Shown here piece by piece: positions 4,199 through 31,986 of a DNA stretch of 64,000 nucleotides; the stretch's first letter is position 1; the number at the start of each line of letters is the position of its first letter. This stretch comes from Candidatus Pacebacteria bacterium CG10_big_fil_rev_8_21_14_0_10_44_54. Its GTDB lineage: Bacteria; Patescibacteriota; Microgenomatia; UBA1400; PJMF01. Below the pieces are notes generated by a model. It worked only from the letters and a program-made list of their open reading frames with translations. It was not told the DNA's origin and ran no database searches. The stretch is from assembly GCA_002772695.1 (NCBI GenBank), contig PFDI01000001.1, positions 33,253 through 97,252 of the forward strand, given 5' to 3'. The translations under genes were made by a program, and so were the position numbers.

Positions 4199-4567
4199 TT
4201 ACTCTCGAAAAGCAATCGCAAAGCGCAGCGTCAAGTACAGCAGTAATATTTGCCAATACACACAAAACAGCACTAGCCAATTGGCGATAAATGAAATCAA
4301 GTCACAACCAAAAAATCCAGAAGTGCTGCAAGAGAAAATATAACGAACTATAGGAACAAGTACAAAAAACCAAACAGCTTTTGCCAATACGAACACCGCT
4401 GTTGGCAACAATGCAAGCCACAAAAAAACATGCTCCCGCACCAGCGACTGCATGGTTTGATAAGGATGCAAAAGCAAGCCAACGGTAATTTTGCTACAGG
4501 CATATACAAACGAAATGGTGAAATGAAGTGCTTTCATGAACCCTCTCGCAACCAGAGCTTCAAACAC
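4199..4567 (-). CDS. Small polytopic membrane protein (candidate anti-sigma factor or membrane partner downstream of the ECF sigma gene)
   Basis: 122 aa, mostly hydrophobic helices. Sits between the ECF sigma gene and the ipk/uppS operon on the same strand. Confidence 0.3.
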   Translation of the reverse strand: MFEALVARGFMKALHFTISFVYACSKITVGLLLHPYQTMQSLVREHVFLWLALLPTAVFVLAKAVWFFVLVPIVRYIFSCSTSGFFGCDLISFIANWLVLFCVYWQILLLYLTLRFAIAFRE

Positions 4568-4736
4568 TCAAGTGCCAAGGCAGTTACTCCAGAGCCAAAT
4601 AACAAAACCTGCCAAGTGTATCTCCCAATAAATGACGAGACGGCATCAAGCTGCGACGGCAAAAGTTTTTTTGCCTCAAGCTTTGCTTGTAGCGACGCCT
4701 CTTTTTCGAGTATTTGGAGAAAATCGACGGTATTTT

Positions 4737-5333
4737 TCACATCATACTTTCAACCAAAACTTGCGAATACACGATACGAAATTCTTCACGAGCGCGAAAC
4801 AACTCCGACTCAATCGCCTTAACAGTCTTGCCGAACACACCGGCTATCTCTGTCACGCGCTTTTTGTCGATGTACTTAAGACGCAACAACTCTGCCGAGT
4901 GCGCCTGCATTCGAGCAAGGCAAGTAGTAACTAGCTGGGAAATCTCGGAAGTATCGTCGAGTGGCTTAGTCAAGAGTGCGTCGAGCAGTGGTACAGTATG
5001 CAGAGCTTTTTTTGCGTAGCGTTTGCGGTAGTAATCGGCTATCTCATGGCGAGCAATCGCGATCATCCATGTCCAAAGTGAAGCATCACCGCGAAACAGC
5101 GGCAGCTGCCGCAATGCATTGAGAAATGTTTCTTGAACTAGTTCCTCGCCGTCCTGCGGATCGCCCACTTTGTTTCTGACGTATCGCAACATCCTGTCGT
5201 GATACAGCGTAAACCACTGCCGCACGGCACTCGACTGACCACGCTTCAGCCTCACTATCAGCTGCTTTTCACTAGACATGAGTATATCGTATACTACTTG
5301 TATATGTTTGGCTTCCTTGTACCTGTTGCCCAT
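4737..5333 (-). CDS. ECF-type RNA polymerase sigma-70 family factor; true start is probably near 5279
   Basis: Region 2 (LVQETFLNALRQLPLFRGDASLWTWMIAIARHEIADYYR) and region 4 HTH (RVTEIAGVFGKTVKAIESELFRAREEF). Confidence 0.7.
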   Translation of the reverse strand: MGNRYKEAKHIQVVYDILMSSEKQLIVRLKRGQSSAVRQWFTLYHDRMLRYVRNKVGDPQDGEELVQETFLNALRQLPLFRGDASLWTWMIAIARHEIADYYRKRYAKKALHTVPLLDALLTKPLDDTSEISQLVTTCLARMQAHSAELLRLKYIDKKRVTEIAGVFGKTVKAIESELFRAREEFRIVYSQVLVESMM

Positions 5334-5666
5334 GCTATTACCGACTGCAAACCCGGCGAAGGTACTGAAGGTATTGATCTTGGCAATTGTCTCCGCCTTA
5401 GCAACGATAGCGCAATCAAAGACGTCTACTCCGAACCGGCTTTCTTGGTCAACCTCATCGTTCGCAATGCATTCGTCGCCGCCGGTGTTATTTTGTTTTT
5501 AATGATTTTCTTGGCAGGATTTAAGTTTGTTTCGCAGGGCAAAAAAGGCATGGAAGAAGCCAAAAACATCTCCAAGTCTGTTCTCATCGGCGCAATCTTG
5601 ATGTTTTGTGCCTACTGGATTGTACAAATTGTCCAGCTTTTGACTGGTGTTGATGTAGGGCTGTAA
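5304..5666 (+). CDS. T4SS-pilin-like protein, paralog P1 (TrbC/VirB2-like two-helix topology). The ORF-track start at 5199 overlaps the sigma gene, so ATG 5304 is more likely.
   Basis: Short signal-like N-terminus MFGFLVPVAHA. Core reads ...LFLMIFLAGFKFVSQGKKGMEEAKN...IGAILMFCAYWIVQIVQLL, with a charged loop between two hydrophobic helices. Confidence 0.5.
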   Translation: MFGFLVPVAHAITDCKPGEGTEGIDLGNCLRLSNDSAIKDVYSEPAFLVNLIVRNAFVAAGVILFLMIFLAGFKFVSQGKKGMEEAKNISKSVLIGAILMFCAYWIVQIVQLLTGVDVGL

Positions 5667-5667
5667 T

Positions 5668-6036
5668 ATGTCACAACTCGCAGCAAACAACCTTGGTATC
5701 GGCAAAATTGCTCAACCTCCTGGTGTAGACAAATACCAAGCTGCTGCTGGCAGCGAAATTGGTATCATGCTGTTTATCTCCATGCTCGTCAAGTTTGCCA
5801 TGATCGTGGCTGGTATTTGGGCAATGCTCAATATCTTTTTGGCCGCCTACATCTATATTAATGGCAAAGGTGATCCAGGCAATCACGAAAAAGTGGCCAA
5901 AGTTGTGACAAATACTACCATGGGCTTGGTGCTTCTTATTAGCCTCTATACAATCGTAGCCATTATTGGGCTTGTGTTCTTTGGGGATGCAAATTATATT
6001 TTGCGCCCAACACTAGCGCCGGTACCAGGTTTATGA
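5668..6036 (+). CDS. T4SS-pilin-like protein, paralog P2
   Basis: 122 aa with two hydrophobic helices (FISMLVKFAMIVAGIWAMLNIFLAAYIYINGKGDPGNHEKVAKVV...LVLLISLYTIVAIIGLVFFG). Tightly packed after P1. Confidence 0.5.
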   Translation: MSQLAANNLGIGKIAQPPGVDKYQAAAGSEIGIMLFISMLVKFAMIVAGIWAMLNIFLAAYIYINGKGDPGNHEKVAKVVTNTTMGLVLLISLYTIVAIIGLVFFGDANYILRPTLAPVPGL

Positions 6037-6599
6037 TCAAAATCATAACATTTCTTACTGCGTTCAGTTTATTTCACATATTTTCTGTTTCTGTAGTGCA
6101 GGCAGGTAGTTGCACAAGTGTTGGTGAGTGTGTGGATGGTCGTATCTGCGTCAAAGACACGCAATCAAACTTAATTTATAAAGGAAGTGAGTCATGTGGA
6201 GATGGCTCTGGACAAAGAATAATTGGCGAAATCACTCCCCCAAAATCAATTCGCAATTTAAATAATCTAGCAAGAATTAGAGATGGAGAATCTGTTGGCA
6301 TTGGCCTGATCATTTTCCTCTCGCGCGCACTGCGGCTGTTTACTATTGGGGTGGGATTATTTGTTATTGCCAACGTCGTCATGGCCGCCTACACCTACAT
6401 ATCAGAGTCAGATAGCAGTGACGTCATGACCAAAGTAAAAGAAAAGTTTACCTATACCGCTGTTGGGCTTGCTATAATTGTTGGCGCGTACACGCTTGCT
6501 GCGATCATTGGCTTACTCTTTTTTGGCGACGCAACATTTATCCTCTCACCAGAATTAACATCTGCGCTCGACCTCGCCGAAACTGCAGCCACACCATAA
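6033..6599 (+). CDS. T4SS-pilin-like protein, paralog P3, with a Cys-rich N-terminal extension
   Basis: Signal peptide plus a Cys-rich segment (AGSCTSVGECVDGRICV...SESCGDGSGQR), then the two-helix pilin core. Has a 4-nt overlap with P2. Confidence 0.5.
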   Translation: MIKIITFLTAFSLFHIFSVSVVQAGSCTSVGECVDGRICVKDTQSNLIYKGSESCGDGSGQRIIGEITPPKSIRNLNNLARIRDGESVGIGLIIFLSRALRLFTIGVGLFVIANVVMAAYTYISESDSSDVMTKVKEKFTYTAVGLAIIVGAYTLAAIIGLLFFGDATFILSPELTSALDLAETAATP

Positions 6600-6602
6600 A
6601 AC

Positions 6603-7007
6603 ATGTATAATAATGTCGTCATGAATACCCCACTCACCAGACTCGCGCAATTTGGCTCATTTGAACCACCAGTGGAGAATAAATTTACAACTGGTGCCAA
6701 CTCTGGCACTGGCGCCTTTACCAATCTAGAGCTGCTCATCTCTCATGCCTTTGGTGTCTTGACTGTTTTTGGTGGCTTATTTTTTATCGTCACCTTTCTG
6801 ATCGCTGGCATTAACTGGATTACCGCTGGCGGAGATACTGGCAAGATTGAGAAAGCACGCGGCAGCATGGTCCAGGGGACACTCGGTCTGGTAGTTATCG
6901 TCGCAGCCTATGCCGTGATTGGTGTTATCGGCTCTATCGTTGGCCTCAATTTGCTCAATCCTGCCGAGAGCCTGACTTCTTTGGTTACAAGAATACAAAC
7001 GCCATGA
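6603..7007 (+). CDS. T4SS-pilin-like protein, paralog P4
   Basis: Conserved loop motif INWITAGGDTGKIEKARGSMVQG lies between the two helices. Confidence 0.55.
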   Translation: MYNNVVMNTPLTRLAQFGSFEPPVENKFTTGANSGTGAFTNLELLISHAFGVLTVFGGLFFIVTFLIAGINWITAGGDTGKIEKARGSMVQGTLGLVVIVAAYAVIGVIGSIVGLNLLNPAESLTSLVTRIQTP

Positions 7008-7399
7008 AAAAAATACTAACTGCACTCGCATTTCTTGCGCTATCTACCTCAACCGTTTTGGCTGAGGTAACAAATCCAGCAGTGGGAACACTTGGTGCTG
7101 ATGCTGATGCAGCCGCAAGTGGCGCAACGTTTGCTCGCTACTTCATAATTCTCTGGCGCGCCCTCATTAGTGTTGGTGGTCTTGCGGTCGTTGTGCTCTT
7201 TTTGCAAGGTGGCATCGAGTGGGTTACCTCTGGTGGTGATTCTGGCAAGCTCGAAAAGGCACGCAATCGAATGGTACAGGGTGCGATTGGCTTGTTTGTG
7301 TTGGTAAGCTCCTTCACTCTGATAGCGTATATAAGCAAGTTGTTTTTTGGTCAAGAATTCCAAATTCTACAACTTACTTTTCCATCAGCGATTAAGTAA
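7004..7399 (+). CDS. T4SS-pilin-like protein, paralog P5
   Basis: Signal peptide. Loop motif IEWVTSGGDSGKLEKARNRMVQG. Confidence 0.55.
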   Translation: MKKILTALAFLALSTSTVLAEVTNPAVGTLGADADAAASGATFARYFIILWRALISVGGLAVVVLFLQGGIEWVTSGGDSGKLEKARNRMVQGAIGLFVLVSSFTLIAYISKLFFGQEFQILQLTFPSAIK

Positions 7400-7401
7400 C
7401 C

Positions 7402-7749
7402 ATGCCACCAACAGACGAAACCACCATCGACCTCTTCGAACAAGCAAAAACCCAAGAGCTTCCTGGCAGGAATGGTATTACTGATATCTCGAGTCCACAA
7501 GTTGGCTTGGGCAACCTCACTTCCAACCTTCTAAACATCGCCATGACTATTGCCGCCCTCCTGGTATTCATTTACTTGCTCTGGGGTGCGATTGGTTGGA
7601 TTACTGCTGGCGGCGACAAAGGCAAGATTGAAACAGCTCGCAATAAAATCACCACAGCCGTCATCGGTGTTGTAGTTTTAGCTTCGGTCGTGGCTATATT
7701 CAAAGTCTTACAGCTGGTTCTTGGTATTGAAGTCCTGACGTTTATCTAA
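7402..7749 (+). CDS. T4SS-pilin-like protein, paralog P6
   Basis: Loop motif IGWITAGGDKGKIETARNKITT flanked by hydrophobic helices. Confidence 0.55.
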   Translation: MPPTDETTIDLFEQAKTQELPGRNGITDISSPQVGLGNLTSNLLNIAMTIAALLVFIYLLWGAIGWITAGGDKGKIETARNKITTAVIGVVVLASVVAIFKVLQLVLGIEVLTFI

Positions 7750-7781
7750 TAAACTGATATTTGCATCTAGAAAATCAGAAG

Positions 7782-7790
7782 TGCTATAAT
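7782..7790 (+). promoter_or_regulatory. Extended -10 promoter element TGcTATAAT upstream of pilin P7, embedded in a small inverted repeat (TCAGAAG...CTTCTGA)
   Basis: The sequence agtgctataatc lies about 40 nt upstream of ATG 7831. An AAAGGA ribosome-binding site sits 7 nt before the start. Confidence 0.4.
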
Positions 7791-7830
7791 CTTCTGAACA
7801 AGACGTAGTACAGAGTACTAAAAGGAAAAC

Positions 7831-8304
7831 ATGACCAACTCATTTTCAAAAATTGCAAGTAAAGCAAGCGCTCTAGGCACTGCTGGGTATATTGCCTTAT
7901 CAAACACTCTTGGAAATGTTCTAGCCCAGAACACTGGCATAGGTACTAGCGCCTCTCGTCCAGCACCAGGGGTAGATAATGCTGGTGGCAACGTTCGTCT
8001 TGCCAAGGGTTATGCGGATAATGTTGGTAGTCTTATCACTTCTGTTCTGACGTTTGTTATGTTGATCGCTGCTCTTTTGATCCTTATGTATCTCATTTGG
8101 GGTGGTATCCAGTGGATTACTTCTGGTGGAGATAAAGGAAAGACTGAAGAAGCACGAAATAAGATTACTTCAGCCGTCATTGGTCTGATCATCCTAGCGG
8201 CAGCTTGGGCAGTCTTTTTAATTGTGCTCAAGTTCCTAGGATTTTCAAATTACAATGATCTGTTTAATAATATTCAAAGCATCAATACACCTTCTGCAGG
8301 CTAA
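7831..8304 (+). CDS. T4SS-pilin-like protein, paralog P7
   Basis: Loop motif IQWITSGGDKGKTEEARNKITS. C-terminal tail ...FLGFSNYNDLF is shared with P8. Confidence 0.55.
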   Translation: MTNSFSKIASKASALGTAGYIALSNTLGNVLAQNTGIGTSASRPAPGVDNAGGNVRLAKGYADNVGSLITSVLTFVMLIAALLILMYLIWGGIQWITSGGDKGKTEEARNKITSAVIGLIILAAAWAVFLIVLKFLGFSNYNDLFNNIQSINTPSAG

Positions 8305-8333
8305 TAATGCAGCTTTAGCTTTTTAACATTATG

Positions 8334-8358
8334 ACCCCCGCCGCTGGCGGGGGTTTTT
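8334..8358 (+). terminator. Rho-independent terminator after pilin P7
   Basis: GC stem cccccgcc / gcggggg with loop gctg, followed by TTTTT. Confidence 0.7.
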
Positions 8359-8375
8359 GTACATCATATTCCCAG

Positions 8376-8387
8376 ATGTAGTATAAT
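8376..8387 (+). promoter_or_regulatory. -10 element (TATAAT) upstream of pilin P8
   Basis: gtagtataat with TATAAT at 8382-8387, just upstream of ATG 8395. Confidence 0.35.
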
Positions 8388-8394
8388 ACCCAAC

Positions 8395-8871
8395 ATGATC
8401 AAATGGTATCAAAGTGTCTTTCTATGTCTGGTGGTTTTTGCCTACTTTTTGGCGCCAGCAGCAATCTCTGCTAGCGGTAGCTCGCTCGGTGTTGTTCGTG
8501 ACGGCGACTCTGTCTACCTCTCTACCACCGCTGCAACGCAATCAGCTACTGCAAGTGGTACAGCATTTGGAGACGTCACACTTTTTAAGGGCTACGCTCT
8601 TACACTTGGCGGCCTCATCACCTCGTTGCTCACTTTAATTATTCTTGTATCGGCTCTTCTTGTTTTTCTCCAACTCATCACCGCCGCCTTCCAATGGCTC
8701 ACCTCGGGCGGAGATAAGGGTAAAACAGGCGAAGCCAGAAGTAAAATTGTCGCTGCGATCATTGGCCTTGTTATTGTCGCTGCTTCTTGGGCTGTCTTTA
8801 TGGTGGTACTCAAATTCCTTGGTTTTGAGTCGTACGACGACTTGTTTGCCAATATGCGATCGATTAGTTGA
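8395..8871 (+). CDS. T4SS-pilin-like protein, paralog P8
   Basis: Loop motif FQWLTSGGDKGKTGEARSKIVA. Closest paralog of P7. Confidence 0.55.
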   Translation: MIKWYQSVFLCLVVFAYFLAPAAISASGSSLGVVRDGDSVYLSTTAATQSATASGTAFGDVTLFKGYALTLGGLITSLLTLIILVSALLVFLQLITAAFQWLTSGGDKGKTGEARSKIVAAIIGLVIVAASWAVFMVVLKFLGFESYDDLFANMRSIS

Positions 8872-8945
8872 TGTAAACCTTACTTTTTTTACTATAAAGC
8901 AAGAATACAAACACTCTAAAGCTAGTTTTATTGATCATTTCTGCC

Positions 8946-8954
8946 TGCTATACT
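8946..8954 (+). promoter_or_regulatory. Extended -10 promoter element TGcTATACT upstream of pilin P9
   Basis: ctgctatact ends 8 nt upstream of ATG 8963. Confidence 0.35.
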
Positions 8955-8962
8955 ACTAAGTG

Positions 8963-9409
8963 ATGCGCACACAGGCACTTTTTTTCAAAATGTACAAAAA
9001 TTTTACCACAGCTTTCGCCCTGTTCTTGATCAGTGTGCAGCCAGTCTTTGCCCAAACAGCTGCTTGGGGCGGCAAATGTGTGGATGGTGAACAAGATGAC
9101 GTCGCCACCATCCAAGGTCTTGAGTGTTTGTTTGCCAATGTATTTTTAGTCATTATTCCTCTCATTGGCCTGGCTGCGTTTGTCATGTTTCTGGTCGGAG
9201 CATTTCGCTGGCTCACCTCGGGCGGAGACACCAAACACACTGGTCAAGCCAAACAAACAATGACGTTTGCGGTGATCGGCATCGTAGTAGCACTCAGCGC
9301 TTTTATAATTTTAAACCTCATTGCCAATTTTACCGGTGTCGAGAAAATCAAAGAATTTAGGATTCCTCGCTCAAATGAGCCGCCCGAACAAACGCAATTT
9401 GTCGATTGA
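8963..9409 (+). CDS. T4SS-pilin-like protein, paralog P9, with a Cys-containing N-terminal segment
   Basis: Signal peptide, then AAWGGKCVDGEQDDVATIQGLEC, then loop motif FRWLTSGGDTKHTGQAKQTMT between helices. Confidence 0.5.
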   Translation: MRTQALFFKMYKNFTTAFALFLISVQPVFAQTAAWGGKCVDGEQDDVATIQGLECLFANVFLVIIPLIGLAAFVMFLVGAFRWLTSGGDTKHTGQAKQTMTFAVIGIVVALSAFIILNLIANFTGVEKIKEFRIPRSNEPPEQTQFVD

Positions 9410-9481
9410 GCTGGCATGTAGCTTGTAAATCATAGTAATCACCGAGAAGAGAATGTCTCTATATTCGGTTATACTAGTTGG

Positions 9482-12400
9482 GTGAGAATTTTTGCGAAAT
9501 TTATTGTGCCCCTTTGTCTGACGCTTGTTTTGGGCGCAGCACCTGCTTCTGTACAAGCTGTAGCTTGTGGGATAAATATTGACCCTACAAATCCTGCTGG
9601 ATATCCCAGCCCAAATGCTCTACCTGCTGGCAGTTGGGTACGACTTGAATACAAAGATTGTAGCACTCAAGAACCCGCAACTAACTCTGTTGAAATGTAC
9701 AAAGACGTGCTACAGACATATCGAAATGCCGGAATAAAAACCCTCGTCATTCTTGATTATCTCACCTATCCGGGAGCGGACAAAAATACACAAGCACTAG
9801 CAACACGAACAACATATATTAACGAAGAACTCGGTAGTCTAGTCGATGCCTACGAAATTTGGAATAAACCCGATATAGAACAGGGTGGCAATCTTGCGCC
9901 CAAAAATTTTGCAAAAATACTCGACGCAATCGTGCCAACCCTGAGTGGAAAAACGGTTGTTCTCGGTGGACTTGCATCGGGACAAACCAGCTACCTCGAT
10001 GAAACGCTGCGCGCTGTATCTGAGAACACACTGGGTGGAATTTCCGCCATAGGAATTCATCCTTATGCAAAGTCTGTCGATGGTTTTCCTGGACCAATGA
10101 CGGGAGATATGGGGTTTTTGCTGTCTCAATACAAGGCTTTATCTCAGGGAAAACCACTCTGGATAACCGAGATCGGTATCAACACCAAAAATGCTGAGCA
10201 AATAACCGGTTATCTAGATCGAGTGTTTGCTGCTGGTTATGGAGACCCTACTTTCTGGTTTGCGTGGAGTGATGGTATGGTACAGAATTTTGGCATTGTT
10301 GATGCAGATCAAAATCCAAAAGCTAACTTTTCAAACTACTTTCGGGCATGTGGCGCAGTCGCTCCCTCAGGAAAACAACAAACACTGCCAGCTATTACCC
10401 CAGTTGGAGGGCAAGGCTGTGGGGTAGCAATTTCAAAAAATAACTACAAAGATACCAAGTCAGATGATCCAAACCTATTTCACTTATCACCTTTTGATGG
10501 CTTGTATCCCGATCCAGGCACGCGCGACTATGATCAGTTGCGTCTCGATCTTGTTCAACAGGGCTACCAAGCATACTGTGCCATCCCAGATCAAGAAATT
10601 GTTGGTACCCTGAGTCCGGCAGAGATCGTCAAGTACTTTGTATCAAATGGGGGAGAAAAGGAACTTGAAATAAATCCCATTCTTACACTTGATTACTCGA
10701 AGGCACAAACACCTCTATTTCGCGACAGCGAAAGAAAATACCAAATAAAAAGTGACATAGAAGAATACTGGGTATATCAAGAATCAGAGGGAGATAGTTT
10801 CTCTCAGATCGAATTGCAGTCTGCTCCTATCGAATCAATTCTTTCAGAAGATCAGCGCTGTAGCCAAGGGGTAAAAAACTTGTACTCTCAAGATGATATG
10901 TGCTCAAAACTAACTGAGCCTAAAAGGTGTTCTCTCTATGCATCGCTTATCCCCAATACATCCCACACTGTTGAGAGTATTCTTGAAGAATATAAGTCTC
11001 ATGGGGGATCAAAAGAGAATGGACTTGAAGTATGCAAAAAACTGAGACTCGCAAATGAAAACACTCAGCGAAAACTTTTTTCTGACCTTACTCAAGTTCC
11101 TCTGAGCATTGATACGGGGTTTCGATTTGCTTTTTTGGTGCTCGCATTTCAAGAGCTGAAACCTGCCCCACTAGAGTTATTTCGCTTTTTTGGGCACGGT
11201 GCTCCACCCAGAGACGAAGTGCTGGTGATAGCGTTCAAAATTCCTGATATTATCACCAATAAACCTGAAGGAACTTCCTTCTCGGACTCAAACTCCTTTG
11301 CATATCCGGCCTTCTCTGATGGTGCGCTGCTCGCTAGAGATTCGCTGCTGAGCACCAAACAGCAAGCTGTGGCTCAAGAACAAAAAAAAGAACTCAAACA
11401 AGAGTTAACGACAACTATCGGGAGCGTTGCTGGTCAAAACAATGGTAGTCTCATTTACTGTCTTGATGGAACGCCGCCAAATGGCACTGGCAGTATCGCT
11501 TGCAATGATCAGCTGGTCAAAGCGCTTACAGATATCATCAACGCCCAACACGTCATCGACGATTCACAGCTTGTGTGTGTGGGTAAAGACGAAATTGATG
11601 CTTCATTTGTAATTGATGAACCAGCTGCTGCTCGTATACAGTCTCCTCCCGCTCTGTTTTCTGACCGTCTGGGGGCGCAAATCATTTCGCAGCTATTTTT
11701 AAGCCAAGCGAACACAGCTACCGACGCTCTTGCCAAAGAATTTTTTAGTTCTTTTTTGATAAATATTTCGACTACTGAGGGAGGAAACAAGCTGTCTGGC
11801 AACACAAAACTAAGAAGCTACATAGTCTACCCCGTTGGCTATGAACTTAAAGAAGTAGAAAATGTGCTTGCCAACAGTTTTTTGACCAAACAGCAAATCA
11901 CAGCATTGCAAAAAGATACAAACAACAACGAGCGTTTTGAAATGTACGGCGGCACTACAAAACTTACAGAAACTGAAGCTGGCTTTAGTGTTTTTTATCC
12001 CATAAACTGCATTCCCTCGATTGACTCTTGTTATAGAACTATCACGGGTGCTATCGACATGGGCGTTCTCAAGCCAATCCAGTTTCTTGGCGCCAAACTT
12101 GGCTACTATCTGCGCGCGGTACAGCGCACGCTTGCCAAAGAAGCTAGTTCTGTCCAAGCCTATCTCGCAAACTGCAAAACAACAGAGCAATTCCTGCTTG
12201 ATCGCTGTGCTAGCGTCCAACAAAAACCACCAAAGCAAGCACTGACATACTGCAGCATGAATGAGCTACCGATCACAAACGAGACTACCGAATCTTTCAA
12301 AATCTGTAAGGCAACCGAAAATTGGAGAGAATGCGAGCTTGTTGACGCAGGTAGCCCTACCTATTTTGTTGATGGTGGTTCAGACAACACACTCGAGTAT

Positions 12401-13789
12401 GTGGTACGCATCCTCGATGGCGCAACACTTGTTACCACCGGCAGTGTTGTGACAATGAATCCCGGCCAGGGCTATGATAAGGTTGAAGGCTCATACAAAC
12501 GCTGTGGAGTCGGCGATAGCGAAAGTGCCCCAGGCGAAGTGTGGTATTTGCCCCCAGGTACTCCCGCCGACGAGAGTATTGAGTCTTTTCGAACTTGGGC
12601 GAAGTATGGATCAAAGCTCATGCCGATTATCGGAAGCAACGCTTGGACAAATCTAACCGTCAGCTTGCGGGTGAAACCAGGCTACTACCACATTCCAAGC
12701 TGGACGTTTGGTTGCCTTAGTCGAGGTAAATGGTGGATTAACTCAAAGGGAGAGAAATCTGATGATGGTTTTACTCTTGGCAAGGGTATTATTCCTGTTG
12801 GAATCACTGCTTCCGGTAAACAATCCTACTGTGCGAAAGTCACGCTAAACTCAAATATGCCAGGAGGACCAAGTGACTCCGATGAAATCTTGCTGGACTC
12901 AAGCTACTCCTGCAGTATAGCTGATCCTGGTTATAACCTCACACTCAATAATAATTGTGGTGGACTCAATAGTAGTGGAGATGGACAGCTCTGGAGAGAC
13001 TTGTTTTCGGCGGATGACGAAAGGGGGACAAATAAACTCCCCGGGCTAGCCCTATATGAGAAAATTTTTGGAATAGCGTTCACTGTACCAAGCGATAATA
13101 TCGGCTGTGATCAGTTATTCCCCAACACTATCCGTGAAGTTGCTTGCGATGAGGTGAGTAATTCTGACGTGGGTAGTATTGCCAATTTTGGCAGTGATGT
13201 GTCGTTTGATATCGAGTACTGGAATCACAGTATGGTAACGTTCAAGCCGCCGTCTCAGGAAATTTGGAGTGCCATTCAAACTGCCTCTGCCAAGCATCGC
13301 TGCGATCCGTATCTAGTCTTGGCAGTGGCTCACTCTGAAAGTTCTCAGTATCGCAATGATACGGTCAGTTCAGCGGGAGCAAAAGGTGTCTGGCAATTTA
13401 CTGATGACACCTGGGACACGTGGAAAACTCCACACGCTGCAAGTGCAAATGAATGTCAGGCACACCAGCCACCAACCTTTTCTACCGAGGGTTTGGATTT
13501 TAGCTCTCCAACAAACATCCAGGCGGCCGCCGACTCAGCTTGTCGCAAAATTATGTGGATTGGTATGCAGCGGTATCCAGGTAATCTCAATAGCTTTGCA
13601 CGCGTCTTTGCGGTCAATGGTGATAACCCATATAGTCAGATTTGGAATGCGCACATCGAGCAAGGAAAGTACGTCTGGAGATTGTGGAAAAAACTGAGAG
13701 AGATCATTCCAGATGCCAAAACTCCTAGATCGCATCCTGCCAACTATCCTCAGGCAGGATGGGAAAGCTGTCCACAACGAAGAAATTAG
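9482..13789 (+). CDS. Giant secreted protein (1435 aa). N-terminal part is glycoside-hydrolase-like (TIM-barrel type). C-terminal part is a VirB1-like lytic transglycosylase (SLT) domain.
   Basis: Signal peptide MRIFAKFIVPLCLTLVLGAAPASVQA. GH-type nucleophile context GKPLWITEIGINTK near aa 225. C-terminal SLT signature CDPYLVLAVAHSESSQYRNDTVSSAGAKGVWQFTDDTW. Confidence 0.55.
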   Translation: MRIFAKFIVPLCLTLVLGAAPASVQAVACGINIDPTNPAGYPSPNALPAGSWVRLEYKDCSTQEPATNSVEMYKDVLQTYRNAGIKTLVILDYLTYPGADKNTQALATRTTYINEELGSLVDAYEIWNKPDIEQGGNLAPKNFAKILDAIVPTLSGKTVVLGGLASGQTSYLDETLRAVSENTLGGISAIGIHPYAKSVDGFPGPMTGDMGFLLSQYKALSQGKPLWITEIGINTKNAEQITGYLDRVFAAGYGDPTFWFAWSDGMVQNFGIVDADQNPKANFSNYFRACGAVAPSGKQQTLPAITPVGGQGCGVAISKNNYKDTKSDDPNLFHLSPFDGLYPDPGTRDYDQLRLDLVQQGYQAYCAIPDQEIVGTLSPAEIVKYFVSNGGEKELEINPILTLDYSKAQTPLFRDSERKYQIKSDIEEYWVYQESEGDSFSQIELQSAPIESILSEDQRCSQGVKNLYSQDDMCSKLTEPKRCSLYASLIPNTSHTVESILEEYKSHGGSKENGLEVCKKLRLANENTQRKLFSDLTQVPLSIDTGFRFAFLVLAFQELKPAPLELFRFFGHGAPPRDEVLVIAFKIPDIITNKPEGTSFSDSNSFAYPAFSDGALLARDSLLSTKQQAVAQEQKKELKQELTTTIGSVAGQNNGSLIYCLDGTPPNGTGSIACNDQLVKALTDIINAQHVIDDSQLVCVGKDEIDASFVIDEPAAARIQSPPALFSDRLGAQIISQLFLSQANTATDALAKEFFSSFLINISTTEGGNKLSGNTKLRSYIVYPVGYELKEVENVLANSFLTKQQITALQKDTNNNERFEMYGGTTKLTETEAGFSVFYPINCIPSIDSCYRTITGAIDMGVLKPIQFLGAKLGYYLRAVQRTLAKEASSVQAYLANCKTTEQFLLDRCASVQQKPPKQALTYCSMNELPITNETTESFKICKATENWRECELVDAGSPTYFVDGGSDNTLEYVVRILDGATLVTTGSVVTMNPGQGYDKVEGSYKRCGVGDSESAPGEVWYLPPGTPADESIESFRTWAKYGSKLMPIIGSNAWTNLTVSLRVKPGYYHIPSWTFGCLSRGKWWINSKGEKSDDGFTLGKGIIPVGITASGKQSYCAKVTLNSNMPGGPSDSDEILLDSSYSCSIADPGYNLTLNNNCGGLNSSGDGQLWRDLFSADDERGTNKLPGLALYEKIFGIAFTVPSDNIGCDQLFPNTIREVACDEVSNSDVGSIANFGSDVSFDIEYWNHSMVTFKPPSQEIWSAIQTASAKHRCDPYLVLAVAHSESSQYRNDTVSSAGAKGVWQFTDDTWDTWKTPHAASANECQAHQPPTFSTEGLDFSSPTNIQAAADSACRKIMWIGMQRYPGNLNSFARVFAVNGDNPYSQIWNAHIEQGKYVWRLWKKLREIIPDAKTPRSHPANYPQAGWESCPQRRN

Positions 13790-13807: not shown

Positions 13808-14671
13808 CTAGCCGCGTGCAATCGACATGCTCTTGGCTAATGATGCAGTCGAGTTGGTAAGGAGTTTCTTCTTGGTTGACGTTTCTTTTGTGGCCTCAGG
13901 CTGCGACTCTAGTTGTGACACAGTAGATTTTTGTTCAAAACCAACCCTGCGCGCGCCCTGACGCAATAATTGCCCCACTGTTTCAAACGTTTCGGCGCTA
14001 ACACTACGCGACGCCAAACCTCGTGTTGCCATCTCAATCCCATAAAGTAGTTGGGTGGCAGAATCTGCTGACAGTGAAAACCCAAGATCTGCAATAAGCC
14101 GGGCCACTTCCTGACTGACGCTCGCGGCGCTCCCGGTGTTTATACTCAGCGTAGCAAACGCTGGTTCATGCGTGGTGATCGAGATGATTGGCACCTTGGC
14201 ATAGACATCTTCGTAGCTCATGTAGAGTTGCTCGAGTTCAACTAGCTCTTTGACACCTACGGTAAAAATCAGGTCTGCCTCTGCCCCCGTATAGGAAAAC
14301 TCGACTGATTCGGGATCAAGTGGTCTCTCACCTTTTTGTGGTTTGATAGTGAGATAAAAACGACCTGTTTCTTCGCCAATATGATAATTGACATTGTCCA
14401 CCTGCTCCGGCTGATACGCAAAACTCAGCACCAAGTTTTGGTTACCAAGCTCGGTCAAAATAGTTGTATCAACAGACTCAGGATAGCGTGATTTTTCTGG
14501 TTGGCGCGGACTCAATAATCGCACTTCCTTTCCGGCGGCAGCCAGACTTGCTGCCAAAGCCTCGGCAGCGGCTCGCTTGTCTGGTGTGGCAGTGCTCGGG
14601 AAAATAACAAAAATGGAGTTGGCTTGTGCGACCAAATCGGTTAACTGAGTCAGCGTTGCAGCATCAATCAT
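13808..14671 (-). CDS. Hypothetical protein with a DHH-phosphoesterase-like layout but degenerate catalytic motifs
   Basis: N-terminus ANSIFVIFPSTATPDKRAAAEALAASLAAAGKEV parallels the NrnA-type I(V)IxxHxxPDGDAxGSxLAL segment, but the DHH / GGGH motifs are absent. Locally high GC content. Confidence 0.3.
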   Translation of the reverse strand: MIDAATLTQLTDLVAQANSIFVIFPSTATPDKRAAAEALAASLAAAGKEVRLLSPRQPEKSRYPESVDTTILTELGNQNLVLSFAYQPEQVDNVNYHIGEETGRFYLTIKPQKGERPLDPESVEFSYTGAEADLIFTVGVKELVELEQLYMSYEDVYAKVPIISITTHEPAFATLSINTGSAASVSQEVARLIADLGFSLSADSATQLLYGIEMATRGLASRSVSAETFETVGQLLRQGARRVGFEQKSTVSQLESQPEATKETSTKKKLLTNSTASLAKSMSIARG

Positions 14672-14698: not shown

Positions 14699-15211
14699 TC
14701 AGAGTGTATCAATGGGGAGGTGTCTACTAGCTGCTCGAACATACTTGAGAGAGAGCATGAGAACAGTTTTACTAATTAGCGATGGTAGAAAACCAAAATG
14801 TAGATAAAAAGCAGCAGCTTCCTTGTGTAGAGCATGAACTAAGATCGCTCGGACACCAATCTTTTCTGCAACCTGCAACGTTCGCAGAATAGCGTCCCGA
14901 AGTAATGCCCTACCAAGCCCTTTGCTTTGCCATACCTCTGCAACAGCCAGTCTGCCCAAAATTACCACTGGAATAGGATTGGGCATATTTCGCCTCACTC
15001 TACCTGGAGTCGCTTGAGCCATAACGGAGCCGCTAGCAAGTGAGTAGTAGGCAACTACCTTGTTCTCTGCCACAGCAACATAGGTGCGCGATGCTCCAGA
15101 AAGCTGGTTCTGCAGTGCTCTGCGCCGCAACCACTGATCCAACTCTAGATCGCCAGAGGAAAAATCGGATAAGTTGTATGATTTGATGAGTAGGGTTGGT
15201 CTCAATCCCAT
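14699..15211 (-). CDS. tacT: GNAT-family acetyltransferase toxin (TacT/AtaT-like). The ORF-track start at 15292 overlaps the antitoxin, so Met near 15211 is more likely.
   Basis: GNAT core VVILGRLAVAEVWQSKGLGRALLRDAILRTLQVAEKIGVRAILVHALHKEAAAFYLHFGF. Sits immediately downstream of, and slightly overlapping, the DUF1778 antitoxin. Confidence 0.6.
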   Translation of the reverse strand: MGLRPTLLIKSYNLSDFSSGDLELDQWLRRRALQNQLSGASRTYVAVAENKVVAYYSLASGSVMAQATPGRVRRNMPNPIPVVILGRLAVAEVWQSKGLGRALLRDAILRTLQVAEKIGVRAILVHALHKEAAAFYLHFGFLPSLISKTVLMLSLKYVRAASRHLPIDTL

Positions 15212-15486
15212 GGAGCTGGAGTAGCTAGCAATGTCTGAAGTGCTTTTGGATGACGGATAGGAGCATCGAGAATTGCGGCAAACTCCTCCCACTTTGTATC
15301 ATCTAACAAAAATAACTGCTGGTCGAGCAATGCGCTCTCGGCTTCTCGTGCAGCTACATCTAAAATAAATTCTGAGCGTGTTTTGCCCCGTACTCGAGCG
15401 GCCTGGTCAATCAAGTCTCGCTGGACTGGAGCTATACGAATATTGATGTGGATGCTTTTTGCAGTTGGTGTTTTCTGTGTTTGCAT
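15202..15486 (-). CDS. tacA: DUF1778 / TacA-family RHH antitoxin
   Basis: 94 aa. IRIAPVQRDLIDQAARVRGKTRSEFILDVAAREAE ribbon-helix-helix segment, typical of partners of GNAT toxins. Confidence 0.6.
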   Translation of the reverse strand: MQTQKTPTAKSIHINIRIAPVQRDLIDQAARVRGKTRSEFILDVAAREAESALLDQQLFLLDDTKWEEFAAILDAPIRHPKALQTLLATPAPWD

Positions 15487-15598
15487 GTTTATATCTTACA
15501 GAATAGTTGTGAGATGTCAACACATTGTGTGTACAAATAAAGATGAATGTACTTTTTATCTTGATATTTTGTGCATCCTGATGTACAATTAGTCAAAT

Positions 15599-16759
15599 AT
15601 GAAATATACTAGACACTTAGAAGCAAATCTGCTTTCTCATTTTTCCAACTACAAACAAGCAATCGTACTGCTTGGAGCACGCCAAACAGGTAAGACAACG
15701 TTGCTCAGGCGGCTGTTTCCAGATGCGCTCTACATCCTACTCGACAACGAGCAAACAAAAAATGTTCTTGAAACATATGACATCTCAACCTATAAGCAAG
15801 CTATTGGTCGCACCAAACAACTCATTATTGACGAACTTCACCTATTACATGACCCTGGGAGGGCCGTTAAAATCATCTACGATCAGGTCCCTGGTTTGCA
15901 ACTTATTGTCACCGGCTCATCCGCACTCCACATAAAAAACAACTCGACAGAAAGTATGGCGGGTCGAAAAATCGAATACAACTTATTTCCACTCACTTTT
16001 TCTGAGTATCTTGTGCAAAAAAATATAGAGACCGTCCTTAATCACTCTGTACTGACCAATGTACTAGAACAAACAACTCCTCCCAAGCATCTGTTCTCCC
16101 CATCAGGACTGCTCGAGCAGGTTCTACTTTACGGTTTGTATCCTGATGTGCTCAACCTACCAGAACCTCGACAATATCTACTCAATTTGGCTGAAAGCGC
16201 TATTTTTAAAGATATAGTCGAGCTAAACCTCATCGACAATCGCAGTAAAGCAAAATCGCTCCTTGAGCTACTCGCGTATCAGATCGGCAATCTTTGCAAC
16301 TACTCAGAGATCGGCGCCAGATTATCTCTAGATAGACGAACAGTAGAGCGATACATAGACATTTTTGAACAAAGTTTTATTGTATTTCGCATCTTTCCTT
16401 ATGCAAACAACAAAAGAAACGAAATAGGAAAAACGCCAAAAATTTACTTTCATGATTTGGGCCTGCGTAATGCTCTGATCGATAACTATGACTCCATCAC
16501 AGTGCGGTCGGATGCAGGCGCGCTGTTTGAAAATTTTATAATTGCGGAACTCAAAAAAAACATTTCTTATCAACAAAGTGATTTCTCACTCAATTACTGG
16601 CGGACAAATAATGGTGCTGAGGTAGATATTGTTCTCAGTAATAACCACACAGTTATTGGCGCAGAAGTTAAAATGCAGAGTGGTTCAGTTTCTACAGCAT
16701 TTACCAATCGCTATCCTGATGCAAAGACGCACGTTATAACCAGACATACTTTTTATTAG
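15599..16759 (+). CDS. AAA-family ATPase with C-terminal DUF4143 domain (COG1373-like)
   Basis: Walker A LLGARQTGKTTLL. Walker B-like LIIDELHLL. C-terminal DUF4143-like region (SEIGARLSLDRRTVERYIDIFEQSFIVFRIFPYANN...). Confidence 0.65.
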   Translation: MKYTRHLEANLLSHFSNYKQAIVLLGARQTGKTTLLRRLFPDALYILLDNEQTKNVLETYDISTYKQAIGRTKQLIIDELHLLHDPGRAVKIIYDQVPGLQLIVTGSSALHIKNNSTESMAGRKIEYNLFPLTFSEYLVQKNIETVLNHSVLTNVLEQTTPPKHLFSPSGLLEQVLLYGLYPDVLNLPEPRQYLLNLAESAIFKDIVELNLIDNRSKAKSLLELLAYQIGNLCNYSEIGARLSLDRRTVERYIDIFEQSFIVFRIFPYANNKRNEIGKTPKIYFHDLGLRNALIDNYDSITVRSDAGALFENFIIAELKKNISYQQSDFSLNYWRTNNGAEVDIVLSNNHTVIGAEVKMQSGSVSTAFTNRYPDAKTHVITRHTFY

Positions 16760-16815: not shown

Positions 16816-18573
16816 ATGCTCAAGCGGATTCTCACCACCGCCGTTTTGTTTTCGATGGTTTTTTTACCGAATGTTATTTATGCACAACAAGGCGAGTCAG
16901 CATCGCTAGATTACGCCCAATTTAGCACCGAAGAATTTGCCGCCTACAAAGAAGCCACCGAAAATTGTGATAGCCCGTCCCTCGAGTGTTTGACCAAAAA
17001 CACCACCCGCTTCGTCGCTATGGAGTGGATCCATGATATTTTGGGCCAGCCGACAAAAGATCAAGCAACAAGTGAGGTGAGTGCTAACTCACCAACAGAA
17101 ATGCTTGTCAATTCAAACACCGGCCTCATGGGCGGCATGACCAAACTCATCGCCGGTATGTACTCCTACCCACCCGCTCGGACCAGCCGCTTTGTGGCAG
17201 ACGTCGCCCAATCTGCTGGCGTAACTCCAGCTTATGCCCAAGGGCTCGGCTTTGCCGCTCTTGATCCGGTGCTTGATCTTTGGAAGAAGTTTCGCAACCT
17301 TGCCTACTTCTTTTTTATAATCATGTTTCTTGTCATCGGCTTTATGATTATGTTTCGCTCCAAGGTGGGCGGCCAAGCGGCCATCACTGCCCAACAAGCG
17401 ATTCCCTCTATCCTCATTAGCCTGATTCTCGTCACTTTTTCGTATGCGATCTCGGGGTTTCTTATTGACCTCATGTACTTAAGCATGTACCTCATCGTAG
17501 GATTGTTTGGTGAGCTCACTACTGATAGCGGAGCCTCGTCAAGCCTCATTAGTATGAATATCTTTCAACTTGGTGGACAACTTCTCAAAGAATCGGCAGG
17601 AAATTTGGGACAAACGACTGACATTGTAAACCAGGTAATCGTAGGACTTATTGGTACCAGCAATGCAGTCACGGGCTTAGTATCAATCATCTCTGGTCTC
17701 ACTTTGTCACTTGTCTTGGCGGTCGCAATAGTGATCGCCCTGTTTCGACTCTTTTTTGAACTACTCAAATCGTACGCCAGTATCGTGGTTGGTGTCGTCA
17801 CCGCTCCTATCTACCTGATGATGGGAGCTATTCCTGGCAAAAATGCCTTTGCTGGCTGGATTAAAAGCATGATTGGCAATCTAGCTGCCTTCCCCACCGT
17901 ACTTCTGGTTGTCGTGCTTTTTTATGAGTTTACCCAAGCTGGCAGTGCCGGCTCGAGTGTGCGCTCTGGTGGCTTCTTGCCGCCGTTTCTAATTGGTGGT
18001 GGCCAGTCGAGTGTGGCGAGTGCACTGCTTGGCTTTGCCCTGCTCCTTGCGCTGCCAGAAGTGGTGAAGAAAATCAAAGAAGCACTGGGTGCCAAAGCTG
18101 GGTTGGGTGAACAGATTGCTGGGTGGGCGGGTGGTAGAATGAAGGATGCTTGGAGTGGTAAATATGGTGCAAAATCAATAATGAGAGAGGGTGCAAAACT
18201 GCCAGTTCGTGGTGTAGGTGCTTACTATGGAGCAAAATTGGGCTCAAACTTTGCCGAAAAAGCAGGGCTTACAGGATGGAAGAGAAATTTGGCGACTATA
18301 GCTGGATCAGGAGTTGGCTTTCAAGCGGCGCCGTCTGTCCCGGGTTTTGCTATTAACACTTTAAAATCTACTGGAAACCAAGTTCGGGATGCCTATATTA
18401 AAGAACAGCTCGAAGATGTTAAAACTGCAATTGATAAGACTATTCGCAGAAAAGATGCAGACGCATATCGGGATGCTGCAGTTAAATCTCAAGACAATAT
18501 CAAACACCCAGAGTCATCCCAAGCAAAACAGGGTGATGGTATATCTTCTAAGCAAAGATCTACGTTTAGTTAA
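16816..18573 (+). CDS. VirB6/TrbL-like polytopic membrane protein
   Basis: Signal peptide, an extracytoplasmic segment of about 150 aa, then 5 or more long hydrophobic helices and a hydrophilic Gly/Lys-rich C-terminal tail. Located inside the T4SS locus. Confidence 0.45.
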   Translation: MLKRILTTAVLFSMVFLPNVIYAQQGESASLDYAQFSTEEFAAYKEATENCDSPSLECLTKNTTRFVAMEWIHDILGQPTKDQATSEVSANSPTEMLVNSNTGLMGGMTKLIAGMYSYPPARTSRFVADVAQSAGVTPAYAQGLGFAALDPVLDLWKKFRNLAYFFFIIMFLVIGFMIMFRSKVGGQAAITAQQAIPSILISLILVTFSYAISGFLIDLMYLSMYLIVGLFGELTTDSGASSSLISMNIFQLGGQLLKESAGNLGQTTDIVNQVIVGLIGTSNAVTGLVSIISGLTLSLVLAVAIVIALFRLFFELLKSYASIVVGVVTAPIYLMMGAIPGKNAFAGWIKSMIGNLAAFPTVLLVVVLFYEFTQAGSAGSSVRSGGFLPPFLIGGGQSSVASALLGFALLLALPEVVKKIKEALGAKAGLGEQIAGWAGGRMKDAWSGKYGAKSIMREGAKLPVRGVGAYYGAKLGSNFAEKAGLTGWKRNLATIAGSGVGFQAAPSVPGFAINTLKSTGNQVRDAYIKEQLEDVKTAIDKTIRRKDADAYRDAAVKSQDNIKHPESSQAKQGDGISSKQRSTFS

Positions 18574-18833
18574 TAACCAACCGAGAACGGAACAAAATGA
18601 AACTTTCTTCTCTATTGAAAAAATTTTTTTTAGGAAATCTGAATAGAAAACCAGCTTTCAAAAATCTGAGACAGAATTTATCAAAAAAACCACAAGAACC
18701 AAAAAAAAGTAGGGATTATTTATCAATTGGCCTAGGCATTGGCAAAAAATACAGAGATTTGTTTCAAACAAATTGATACAAAACTACTTATAGTCGAAAA
18801 TTTGTGTGAGTGTGGCTAAATTTAATACAAAAT

Positions 18834-22138: not shown

Positions 22139-22534
22139 ATGACTTCGCAATCGACCAACACCACTGCTGACGACTGGATTGCTGCCACCGTCCTACGCGG
22201 CGACCAAACTGGCCGTACTATCAACTTCCCTAGCCTCAATCTAGACGCCGCCCTCTGGCCAAAGGCCCTACAGGCACAACCTGGTGTGTATGCTTCGCTC
22301 GTGCAGATTGCAGGCAGGCGGTACAAAGGCGCGCTCTACTACGGCCCAAGGTTAGTAAAAAAAGAAGTACACAACGTGCTTGAGATCCATGTTTTTGATT
22401 TTGCTGAGGAAATCTATGACCAGACAATCGAGTTTCAGATTGGTGCGTTTGTGCGACCACCCCTAGATTTTGACTCGCTCGATGGGCTCAAGCAGCAGTT
22501 GGCGGAGGATGTGGCGAGGGTTGTGGGCTTATAA
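22139..22534 (+). CDS. Monofunctional riboflavin kinase (RibF C-terminal-domain type)
   Basis: GRTINFPSLNL...PGVYASLVQIAGRRYKGALYYGPRLVKKEVHNVLEIHVFDFAEEIYDQTIEFQIGAFVRP matches the riboflavin kinase domain. Only 131 aa, with no FMN-adenylyltransferase domain. Confidence 0.7.
   Translation: MTSQSTNTTADDWIAATVLRGDQTGRTINFPSLNLDAALWPKALQAQPGVYASLVQIAGRRYKGALYYGPRLVKKEVHNVLEIHVFDFAEEIYDQTIEFQIGAFVRPPLDFDSLDGLKQQLAEDVARVVGL
22487..22520. repeat. Direct repeat copy 1 (34 bp) at the 3' end of the riboflavin kinase gene
   Basis: ctcaagcagcagttggcggaggatgtggcgaggg. It matches 23480-23513 at 31 of 34 positions. Confidence 0.8.
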
Positions 22535-23116: not shown

Positions 23117-23119
23117 ATA

Positions 23120-29021: not shown

Positions 29022-29022
29022 T

Positions 29023-29592: not shown

Positions 29593-29621
29593 TCAAATGG
29601 TTCTCTATTGATCTTGGCTCT

Positions 29622-30833: not shown

Positions 30834-30884
30834 CTTGCCGCCTGCCTTGAAACACGCTACGATACTACACAGAGACAAACTTGC

Positions 30885-31916: not shown

Positions 31917-31938
31917 GATTTGGCCAATAAACAATACT

Positions 31939-31967: not shown

Positions 31968-31986
31968 TTGCGTACAATAGCTTGTA

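Follow-up and report, generated by a model that had tools for sequence, protein, structure and literature searches.

We characterized a tandem array of pilin-like genes in a 64,000 nucleotide (nt) long stretch of the genome of Candidatus Pacebacteria bacterium CG10_big_fil_rev_8_21_14_0_10_44_54 (contig PFDI01000001.1, positions 33,253 to 97,252). This whole stretch is referred to as the window, and coordinates are given within it unless stated otherwise. The array consists of nine adjacent open reading frames (ORFs), P1 to P9, on the + strand at 5304-9409; a further pilin gene, P0, is cut by the window edge. We consider it fairly probable that the array is the pilin module of a Patescibacteria-type monoderm type IV secretion system (T4SS) resembling the mating pair formation class FATA (MPF-FATA), in which seven pilin types would build a multi-subunit pilus. 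This reading builds on direct observations of the family membership of the proteins, their orthogroups, the gene order, the pattern of terminators and promoters and a set of conserved neighbouring genes.

The nine ORFs are all intact, follow each other back to back and encode proteins of 115-188 amino acids (aa). According to hydropathy each protein contains two long hydrophobic helices around a short charged loop. From P1 to P6 the intergenic spacings are only +1, -4, +3, -4 and +2 nt, which bears out the close packing reported in the original prediction, and P7, P8 and P9 follow after gaps of 81, 90 and 88 nt, respectively. P1 (5304-5666), the first gene of the P1-P6 unit, has a short leader of ~11 aa, a short inter-helix loop and a conserved Cys-x13-Cys loop. 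P2 (5668-6036) starts 1 nt past the P1 stop and has neither a signal peptide nor a Shine-Dalgarno sequence. P3 (6033-6599) is a local duplicate of P2 with 38% identity in the hairpin; it carries a Sec-type signal peptide and an N-terminal extension with four Cys. P4 (6603-7007, loop WITAGGDTGKIEKAR), P5 (7004-7399, loop WVTSGGDSGKLEKAR) and P6 (7402-7749, loop WITAGGDKGKIETAR) follow. P7 (7831-8304), our candidate for the major pilin, is identical to the database protein GW946_00670, a hypothetical protein of a Candidatus Pacebacteria bacterium. P8 (8395-8871) is a local duplicate of P7 with a hairpin identity of 62%, and P9 (8960-9409) contains a conserved Cys pair. Signal peptides in addition to the two hydrophobic segments were found for P3, P5, P8 and P9.

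P4-P8 all carry the loop W[ILV]T[SA]GGDxGK..(E)..AR, as originally described, except that P5 has W-V at a position for which only I or L had been allowed. In P9 the loop is degenerate and reads SGGDTKH (SGGDTKHTGQAK). The Cys residues described for the N-terminal extensions of P0, P3 and P9 were also seen, and the conserved Cys pair of P1 has to be added to this list. As a side observation, the leader of P1-type pilins (5304-5400 in the window and orthologs in loci L006-L037) is unusually short with ~11 aa. It ends in AYA, followed by Q, after which a disulfide loop of the form C-x-PG-x-G-x3-LG-x-C is conserved in L006-L037.

To assign the proteins to a family, the larger ORFs of the window (about 45, pilins included) were scanned against family libraries. 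For all ten proteins P0-P9 the best Pfam match was PF18895 (T4SS_pilin). Its gathering score of 26.6 bits was exceeded by P4 (30.4 bits), P5 (29.8 bits), P6 (35.8 bits), P7 (43.7 bits) and P9 (33.8 bits). A profile rebuilt from related loci recognized all ten proteins with E = 3e-18 to 7e-30. PF18895 was also the best match in 46/46 relatives, 13 of which additionally matched PF04956 (TrbC/VirB2; best E = 2.9e-8) and 5 CagC. The link of the window pilins to TrbC/VirB2, as judged from these profiles, is transitive and runs through the relatives only. The NCBIfam family NF045849 of pilin-like conjugal transfer proteins (cut-off 40 bits) was reached by P7 with 44.8 bits, the sole array gene over this cut-off; P4, P6, P8 and P9 obtained 21.8-25.2 bits and P1, P2, P3 and P5 gave no match. 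P7 was the best match to every pilin profile. In its AlphaFold2 (AF2) model two helices, 65-97 and 102-135, form a hairpin with a predicted local distance difference test (pLDDT) score >90. The predicted fold is compatible with T4SS pilins but unspecific, since such a hairpin is generic. Overall, membership in PF18895 and in the VirB2/PrgF-like family is well supported by the profile matches. The original description of the array as T4SS/VirB2-like pilin paralogs in tandem holds in this respect, and a VirB4/PrgI/TrsD core is present in the same window (see below).

In order to see how the array is built in other species, we compared 80 loci, each from a different species, in which ORFs with pilin domains were called with a locus-derived hidden Markov model. 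The loop motif served to retrieve the loci, which were then ranked by their similarity to P7. The motif search of species-representative genomes had yielded 247 confirmed stretches whose record titles name Pacebacteria, Microgenomates, Woesebacteria, Patescibacteria and, in many cases, 'Pseudomonadales'. Concerning the latter we note that many metagenome-assembled genomes with this Patescibacteria-specific locus (L007-L083) are titled 'uncultured Pseudomonadales bacterium' and are evidently mislabelled.

Nearly every complete locus contained 7-12 ORFs with a pilin domain, and their best-hit labels followed the gene order of the window. Unsupervised Louvain clustering of 642 pilin domains returned groups that match the array position. 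The P9 group comprised 77 members from 77 loci and was the last gene in 72 of them. Similarly, the P4 group had 74 members in 73 loci, and P5 and P6 had 72 members in 72 loci each. For array counts we used the 69 arrays with at least 6 members: P4, P5, P6 and P9 were single-copy in 66-68 of these. The P7/P8, P2/P3 and P0/P1 groups occurred in one to three copies per locus, with the P7 type being duplicated in many lineages. All seven groups were found together in 59 arrays. The genes were collinear on one strand in 65 arrays, and the other four differed only in the position of the big fusion gene. The comparison across related genomes that had been proposed with the original prediction thus returned a set of seven orthogroups in a practically constant order.

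Every group has its own conserved signature in loop and helices. The WIT[SA]GGDxGK..AR loop is retained independently in the groups P4, P5, P6 and P7/P8, i.e. it is conserved in the orthologous loci. Within the window the hairpin identity of most paralog pairs is 22-38%. Higher values are found for the neighbouring pairs P4/P5 (52%), P6/P7 (55%) and P7/P8 (62%), such that within-genome paralogs outside P4/P5 and P6-P8 (47-62%) are 22-38% identical. Between species, members of the same group share on average 44-60% identity in the hairpin and 28-39% in the N-terminal part. A recent lineage-specific amplification was not seen, as the groups follow array position and not genome. Judged from these sequence comparisons, the pilins are seven ancient, non-interchangeable VirB2/PrgF-like types whose paralogs predate the divergence of ~80 species. 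The window array has nine genes because the P2 and the P7 type have each been locally duplicated.

The array is also divided in a characteristic manner by signals for transcription and translation. P2-P6 are devoid of Shine-Dalgarno sequences and appear to be translationally coupled. P7 is preceded by an extended -10 box (TGcTATAAT, 7782-7790, + strand, 40 nt upstream of the gene, found by pattern match) and by an AAGGA Shine-Dalgarno sequence at 7822-7826. It is followed by a predicted intrinsic terminator at 8335-8358 on the + strand, which has the form CCCCCGCC-GCT-GGCGGGGG then TTTTT. The terminator folds with -21.8 kcal/mol (z = -4.2), and 0 of 200 shuffled sequences folded as well. A simple terminator scanner missed this element; folding and a separate hairpin scan confirmed it. 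P7 is the sole gene of this array that combines its own predicted promoter, Shine-Dalgarno sequence and terminator. Further + strand boxes are a TATAAT at 8382-8387, located 7 nt before the ATG of P8 as in leaderless genes, a TATACT at 8949-8954 immediately before the P9 start codon and a TATACT at 5290-5295, 8 nt before the ATG of P1. The terminator after P7, the own -10 elements of P7, P8 and P9 and the operon-like arrangement that had been read from the window therefore all stand.

This architecture is found in other species as well. In the group of the first array genes a -10-like box 4-10 nt before the in-frame start was present in 60/91 cases compared to 20 in out-of-frame controls, and in the P9 group in 49/76 cases compared to 7 in controls. 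No enrichment was obtained for the P4-P6 groups. When a terminator was defined as a hairpin with a T-run no more than 130 nt past the stop codon, one followed 54/103 genes of the P7/P8 group compared to 0-1 genes of each other group. A P7/P8-type terminator occurred in 62/75 loci, usually after the first copy where there were two, and its stem sequence differed between species. Because the pattern of terminator and -10 boxes is conserved across species, the arrangement in which P1-P6(-P7) form a coupled unit, a terminator follows and P8 and P9 are units of their own can be taken as ancestral and not as peculiar to this genome. As the terminator follows the P7 type and almost never another pilin type, P7 is likely the major subunit. 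We additionally observed that the TATAAT/TATACT boxes of P1, P8, P9 and a 1435-aa gene downstream of the array (5290-5306, 8382-8397, 8949-8965, 9470-9484) lie only 5-8 nt before the start codons and lack a Shine-Dalgarno sequence. The small distance suggests leaderless mRNAs for these four genes.

At the left edge of the window P0 (1-594, + strand) represents the C-terminal 197 codons of a pilin-fusion protein of 500 aa, the start of which lies outside the window. It had been read as a protein of 192 aa (16-594), which extended the reported size range of the ten proteins to 115-192 aa. This P0 is an artefact of the window boundary, because its reading frame continues without a stop up to window base 1 and an identical contig carries the 500-aa gene; the lower figure, 115 aa, holds for the nine array ORFs. 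On this public contig (L001, 100% identical) the full gene is found at 1262-2764. It encodes, in this order, a signal peptide, a shared N-terminal domain, four tandem six-Cys modules of ~40 aa each (pattern CG..C..C..CC..C), a Pro/Asn-rich linker and the pilin hairpin. The fragment in the window contains the last six-Cys module, the linker and the hairpin. By clustering P0 falls into the P0/P1 orthogroup (PF18895 25.6 bits), in which the ectodomain varies greatly, with proteins ranging from 114 to 500 aa. Directly upstream of P0 and outside the window (L001, 18-1265) we found a second fusion gene of 415 aa with the same layout. It scores 31.8 bits on PF18895, above the gathering score, and large upstream fusions form a separate cluster in related loci. 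In total the locus thus contains eleven genes with a pilin domain, two of which encode large pilin-anchored surface proteins. The genes for an AbiEii toxin and its upstream partner, uppS, an amino-acid kinase gene and a sigma-factor unit lie between the fusion genes and the nine small genes. The Cys-rich fusion proteins are candidates for host-binding parts.

The window also contains the T4SS core, which is located on the + strand at 24675-33909 (PF12666, PF19044, NF045971) beside dnaA, dnaN, rnpA and yidC, with dnaA starting at 33932. The core comprises genes for a 1448-aa and a 189-aa protein, followed by a PrgI/VirB3-like gene (29622-30833), a gene for a TrsD-like protein of 343 aa (30885-31916, weak match to NF041427 TrsD) and the gene of the VirB4 ATPase (31987-33909), all on the + strand. 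The latter reached 376 bits against a cut-off of 325 for NF045971, the CD1110-family VirB4. From these matches the VirB4 function appears to be split over the two genes at 30885-31916 and 31987-33909. The TrsD-like protein matches the N-terminal region of the VirB4 model of Mycoplasma integrative and conjugative elements (ICEs), and its C-terminal third is a low-complexity tail rich in Pro, Thr and Ala. Homologs of VirB5, VirB8, VirB9 and VirB10 were not detected among the ~45 window proteins scanned.

Several genes accompany the array across species. Head-to-head with P1, on the - strand, lies the gene of a sigma-70 factor of extracytoplasmic function (ECF) type (4737-5279; TIGR02937 68.9 bits versus a cut-off of 42.9). 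It is followed on the same strand by genes for a 68-aa protein with a C-terminal hydrophobic helix (4534-4740), the start of which overlaps the sigma stop by 4 nt, and for a 122-aa multi-pass membrane protein (4199-4567) as the third gene of the unit; neither protein has a Pfam match. The sigma gene was found directly upstream of the array on the opposite strand in 54/80 loci. A homolog of the 68-aa protein adjoined it in 46/80 loci, and one of the 122-aa protein lay within 900 nt downstream of it in 49/80 loci. The 68-aa protein is a candidate anti-sigma factor of which the 122-aa protein may be a partner, and the three genes at 4199-5279 probably form a sigma/anti-sigma switch for the pilin module.

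Downstream of the array follows the gene of a secreted protein of 1435 aa (9482-13789, + strand) with a glycosyl-hydrolase core near its N-terminus (PF11790, 25.0 bits) and a soluble lytic transglycosylase (SLT) domain at its C-terminus (PF01464, 23.9 bits), both over the cut-offs. Its domain content identifies it as a predicted VirB1-like cell-wall hydrolase. Of the 68 loci that reach more than 3 kb beyond the array, 32 had a homolog directly 3' of the P9 ortholog. Next comes a conserved gene for a 287-aa protein (13808-14671, - strand) without family match; in 31/56 loci a homolog of it lay ~3.65 kb past the P9 ortholog. Farther downstream, 7.4 kb from the array, the window encodes a polytopic membrane protein of 585 aa (16816-18573, + strand) with roughly nine helices. 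In the AF2 model its core has pLDDT values of 70-92 and matches the VirB6/DotA fold. Among Pfam and NCBIfam profiles, the VirB6, TrbL and PrgH families included, there was no match even at E <= 1. In 34/56 loci a homolog was encoded on the strand of the array, ~4.7 kb downstream of it. VirB6 homologues have been called 'scarce' in Microgenomatia (PMC12102498). Based on its modelled fold we consider the 585-aa protein a candidate for the missing VirB6, i.e. for a platform of pilus assembly with linkage to the pilins instead of virB4.

The conserved block is broken up in the window by toxin-antitoxin and defence-like genes at 664-1927, 14699-15580, 15599-16759 and 22529-23527. They comprise the AbiEii toxin and its upstream partner, a GNAT toxin with TacA, an AAA_14/DUF4143 ATPase and a second DUF4143 fragment with a helix-turn-helix gene. 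In related loci the genes of the 287-aa and the VirB6-like protein are ~1 kb apart. The region 18000-22000 has a low GC content (0.39 versus ~0.45-0.47 in most of the window) and harbours a 1074-aa ORF (18834-22058, - strand) that gave no match in the family libraries and has a homolog in 1/80 loci.

Arrays of this kind have been described before: 441 VirB2 arrays with 2-11 pilin genes were reported in 383 Patescibacteria assemblies, with a mean identity of 25% and especially commonly in Microgenomatia and Saccharimonadia (Quinonero-Coronel et al. 2025, PMC12102498). The array is an additional member of this published kind of element and no new kind, as it shares with the reported arrays the PF18895 family, the tandem divergent genes and the phylum. 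Likewise, a monoderm-type VirB4/PrgI/TrsD core beside dnaA is found here as in that work. Orthogroups, gene order, the terminator behind one of the pilin types and the large pilin-anchored proteins were not resolved there. Neither a relaxase nor a coupling protein is part of the Patescibacteria systems (PMC12102498), which are therefore probably not conjugative. In Southlakia epibionticum, the one species with an experimental test, a series of six pilin genes, SEML1_0014-0019, is essential (Wang et al. 2023, PMC10633639). All six, the last gene included, were called GD/ES/ES by transposon insertion sequencing (Table S1 of PMC10633639). The Southlakia array abuts a VirB6-like gene and the T4SS core, whereas the window array is 15 kb away from the core and has its own neighbours, namely the ECF sigma trio, the giant SLT protein and the VirB6-like protein.

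Other monoderm T4SSs can have VirB2-like pilins such as PrgF (2025 review; bioRxiv 10.64898/2025.12.18.695078). In PrgF the charged loop is proposed to face the lumen of the pilus, and PrgH, which is VirB6-like, serves as its site of assembly (ter Beek et al. 2025, bioRxiv 10.64898/2025.12.18.695078). Like PrgF of Enterococcus pCF10 the array proteins are small, have a short charged loop between two transmembrane helices and belong to a monoderm T4SS near a VirB6-like gene. With 115-188 aa, and shorter mature forms, compared to 50-150 aa for PrgF-type pilins, they agree with PrgF in size, topology and gene context. PrgF systems, however, have one functional pilin each, compared to seven conserved kinds here. 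Mbov_0395 of Mycoplasma ICEs belongs to NF045849, the family in which P7 passes the cut-off, and the Mycoplasma ICE VirB4 model NF045975 is also matched by the VirB4 and the TrsD-like protein of the window. Mbov_0395 is a single gene in a conjugation ICE, though, and only one of the nine array genes passes the cut-off. Type IV pili and the pseudopili of type II secretion systems (T2SSs) have in common with the array a fixed set of divergent paralogs with a shared hydrophobic assembly domain and a conserved order. They contain one abundant and several low-abundance subunits, with some of the minor ones carrying large adhesin domains. Family, fold and machinery are unrelated, since a single N-terminal helix and a prepilin-peptidase site are found there instead of a two-helix hairpin; the likeness is an analogy of logic only.

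The original prediction took the array for a means of antigenic or host-range variation, in which the paralogs would be alternative major pilins that are expressed differentially from internal promoters and alter the pilus surface. Host-range versatility has also been proposed for the published arrays by analogy with Bartonella and Anaplasma (PMC12102498). This idea is in line with the separate -10 boxes before P7, P8 and P9 and the terminator after P7, with the lower conservation between species of the presumably exposed N-terminal parts compared to the hairpins, with the large length range of the P0-group ectodomains and with the repeated duplication of the P7 type. In Anaplasma and Bartonella, tandem VirB2-type genes likewise belong to non-conjugative T4SSs, but the window paralogs are older than the divergence of ~80 species and hold fixed positions. 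Seven orthogroups in the same order in ~70 species, four of them strictly single-copy, are hard to reconcile with interchangeable variants, and the tightly coupled P1-P6 genes would be made together. Moreover, the six Southlakia pilin genes were each called essential. Outside P4/P5 and P6-P8 the paralogs are only 22-38% identical to each other, compared to 44-60% within a group across species. At the DNA level the repeats among the array genes were a 45-nt loop-coding motif (5 copies, 64-82% identity) and one 120-nt stretch at 70%, and no long repeats able to drive gene conversion were found among them, such that a substrate for recombination of cassettes is missing. We therefore dropped gene-conversion cassettes: unlike in the pilE/pilS logic of Neisseria there are no long repeats, and all nine copies are intact. 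Taken together, these observations fit poorly with differential expression of pilin variants for antigenic or host-range variation, and we regard this explanation as quite improbable.

More room is left for a short pseudopilus or stalk, or for a part of a membrane channel, resembling T2SS pseudopilins or replacing the functions of VirB5, VirB8 and VirB10. The orthogroups agree with such a structure as well as with a pilus, the scanned window proteins include no homolog of VirB5, VirB8, VirB9 or VirB10, and the Gram-positive PrgF model is likewise a tube that spans the wall. The conserved terminator and the strong conservation of P7, on the other hand, better fit a polymerising bulk subunit than a channel of fixed stoichiometry, such that we consider this alternative unlikely. 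Finally, the likeness to pilins could reflect hydrophobic composition only, and the proteins could really be holins, transporter subunits or RseC-like proteins. Weak matches to the membrane families MFS_2, TctB, Cyt_bd_oxida_II, Holin_BhlA (E = 0.45) and RseC were indeed obtained, some relatives carry such membrane-family names in public records and the hairpin is a generic fold. These matches were all sub-threshold and no profile assigned the proteins to holins or another unrelated family, for which reason an identity as holin or other small membrane protein was dropped. Every member has PF18895 as best match, P7 exceeds a curated cut-off for a conjugation pilin-like family, the conserved loop motif is not hydrophobic, the array is linked with the SLT hydrolase and the VirB6-like protein, and the same genome has a T4SS core. 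An origin of the pilin likeness in mere composition thus has hardly any probability left.

A number of points nevertheless weigh against the pilin module of a T4SS pilus that we favour. P0, P1, P2, P3 and P8 remain below the gathering score of PF18895 with 17-25.6 bits, even if it is their best match. None of the window proteins reaches the PF04956 cut-off of 27.9 bits, the best being P7 with 13.2 bits (E = 0.11), and a profile search of the PDB sequences with the 46-sequence pilin alignment gave no meaningful match. The array is 22.6 kb away from virB4 in the window, and in none of the 80 related loci was virB4, PrgI or dnaA found at a distance of up to 10 kb from the array; its linkage to the T4SS core holds at the genome level only. 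Because of the retrieval of loci by the loop motif and their ranking by P7 similarity, the top conservation of P7, and of the motif in its group, is partly due to ascertainment; the results on gene order and copy number are unaffected by this choice. The terminator after P7 could merely mark the end of a P1-P7 operon. We know of no pilus that has been seen on any Patescibacteria T4SS. To our knowledge every conjugative pilus solved so far is a homopolymer of a single VirB2, and a structure of seven pilins would be without precedent. Essentiality calls from transposon insertions in ~400-nt genes of an operon can be polar. For the last Southlakia pilin gene, being essential as well, polarity on downstream pilins cannot explain the call.

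By analogy with VirB2 and PrgF biology, we infer for the favoured pilin module how a pilus would form, which subunits would be major or minor, how the loop would be oriented and how the genes would be regulated. On membrane insertion each pilin would adopt a hairpin of two helices, its charged GGDxGK loop facing the cytoplasm and its variable N- and C-termini exposed on the outer side. The pilins would then be pulled out by the VirB4 ATPase together with the VirB6-like platform and stacked to give a wall-crossing tube, in which the conserved loop may line the lumen or contact lipid or the platform. P7 would provide the bulk, i.e. the major subunit, and the co-translated P1-P6, P8, P9 and the two fusion proteins would be low-abundance initiator, adaptor or tip (adhesin) subunits, with the two larger proteins holding their Cys-rich ectodomains by means of the same pilin hairpin. 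The giant SLT hydrolase would open the peptidoglycan, and the divergent unit of ECF sigma and putative anti-sigma factor would control expression. The complete picture of a heteropolymeric Microgenomatia T4SS pilus, made of seven types with P7 as bulk, P1-P6 and P9 as initiator or tip and Cys-rich adhesins, and assembled on a divergent VirB6, is a possibility that we put forward tentatively.

The role of the essential T4SS of Patescibacteria has been called 'completely unknown' in reviews (PMC11665869), and whether a monoderm T4SS makes a pilus has been discussed only recently. The comparison across species argues against the published and intuitive idea of variant pilins for different hosts. 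It recasts the array as a fixed kit of seven parts, in which one terminator-flanked subunit probably dominates and which has a sigma factor of its own, a hydrolase for the wall and what is probably a VirB6 platform. Compared to previous work the orthogroup, terminator and VirB6 findings represent the added value. If the heteropolymeric pilus is real, it would be the first T4SS pilus with an architecture of major and minor pilins and would represent a convergent re-invention of the logic of type IV pili and T2SSs within the T4SS family. The 585-aa protein would then fill the reported gap of the 'missing VirB6' in Microgenomatia.

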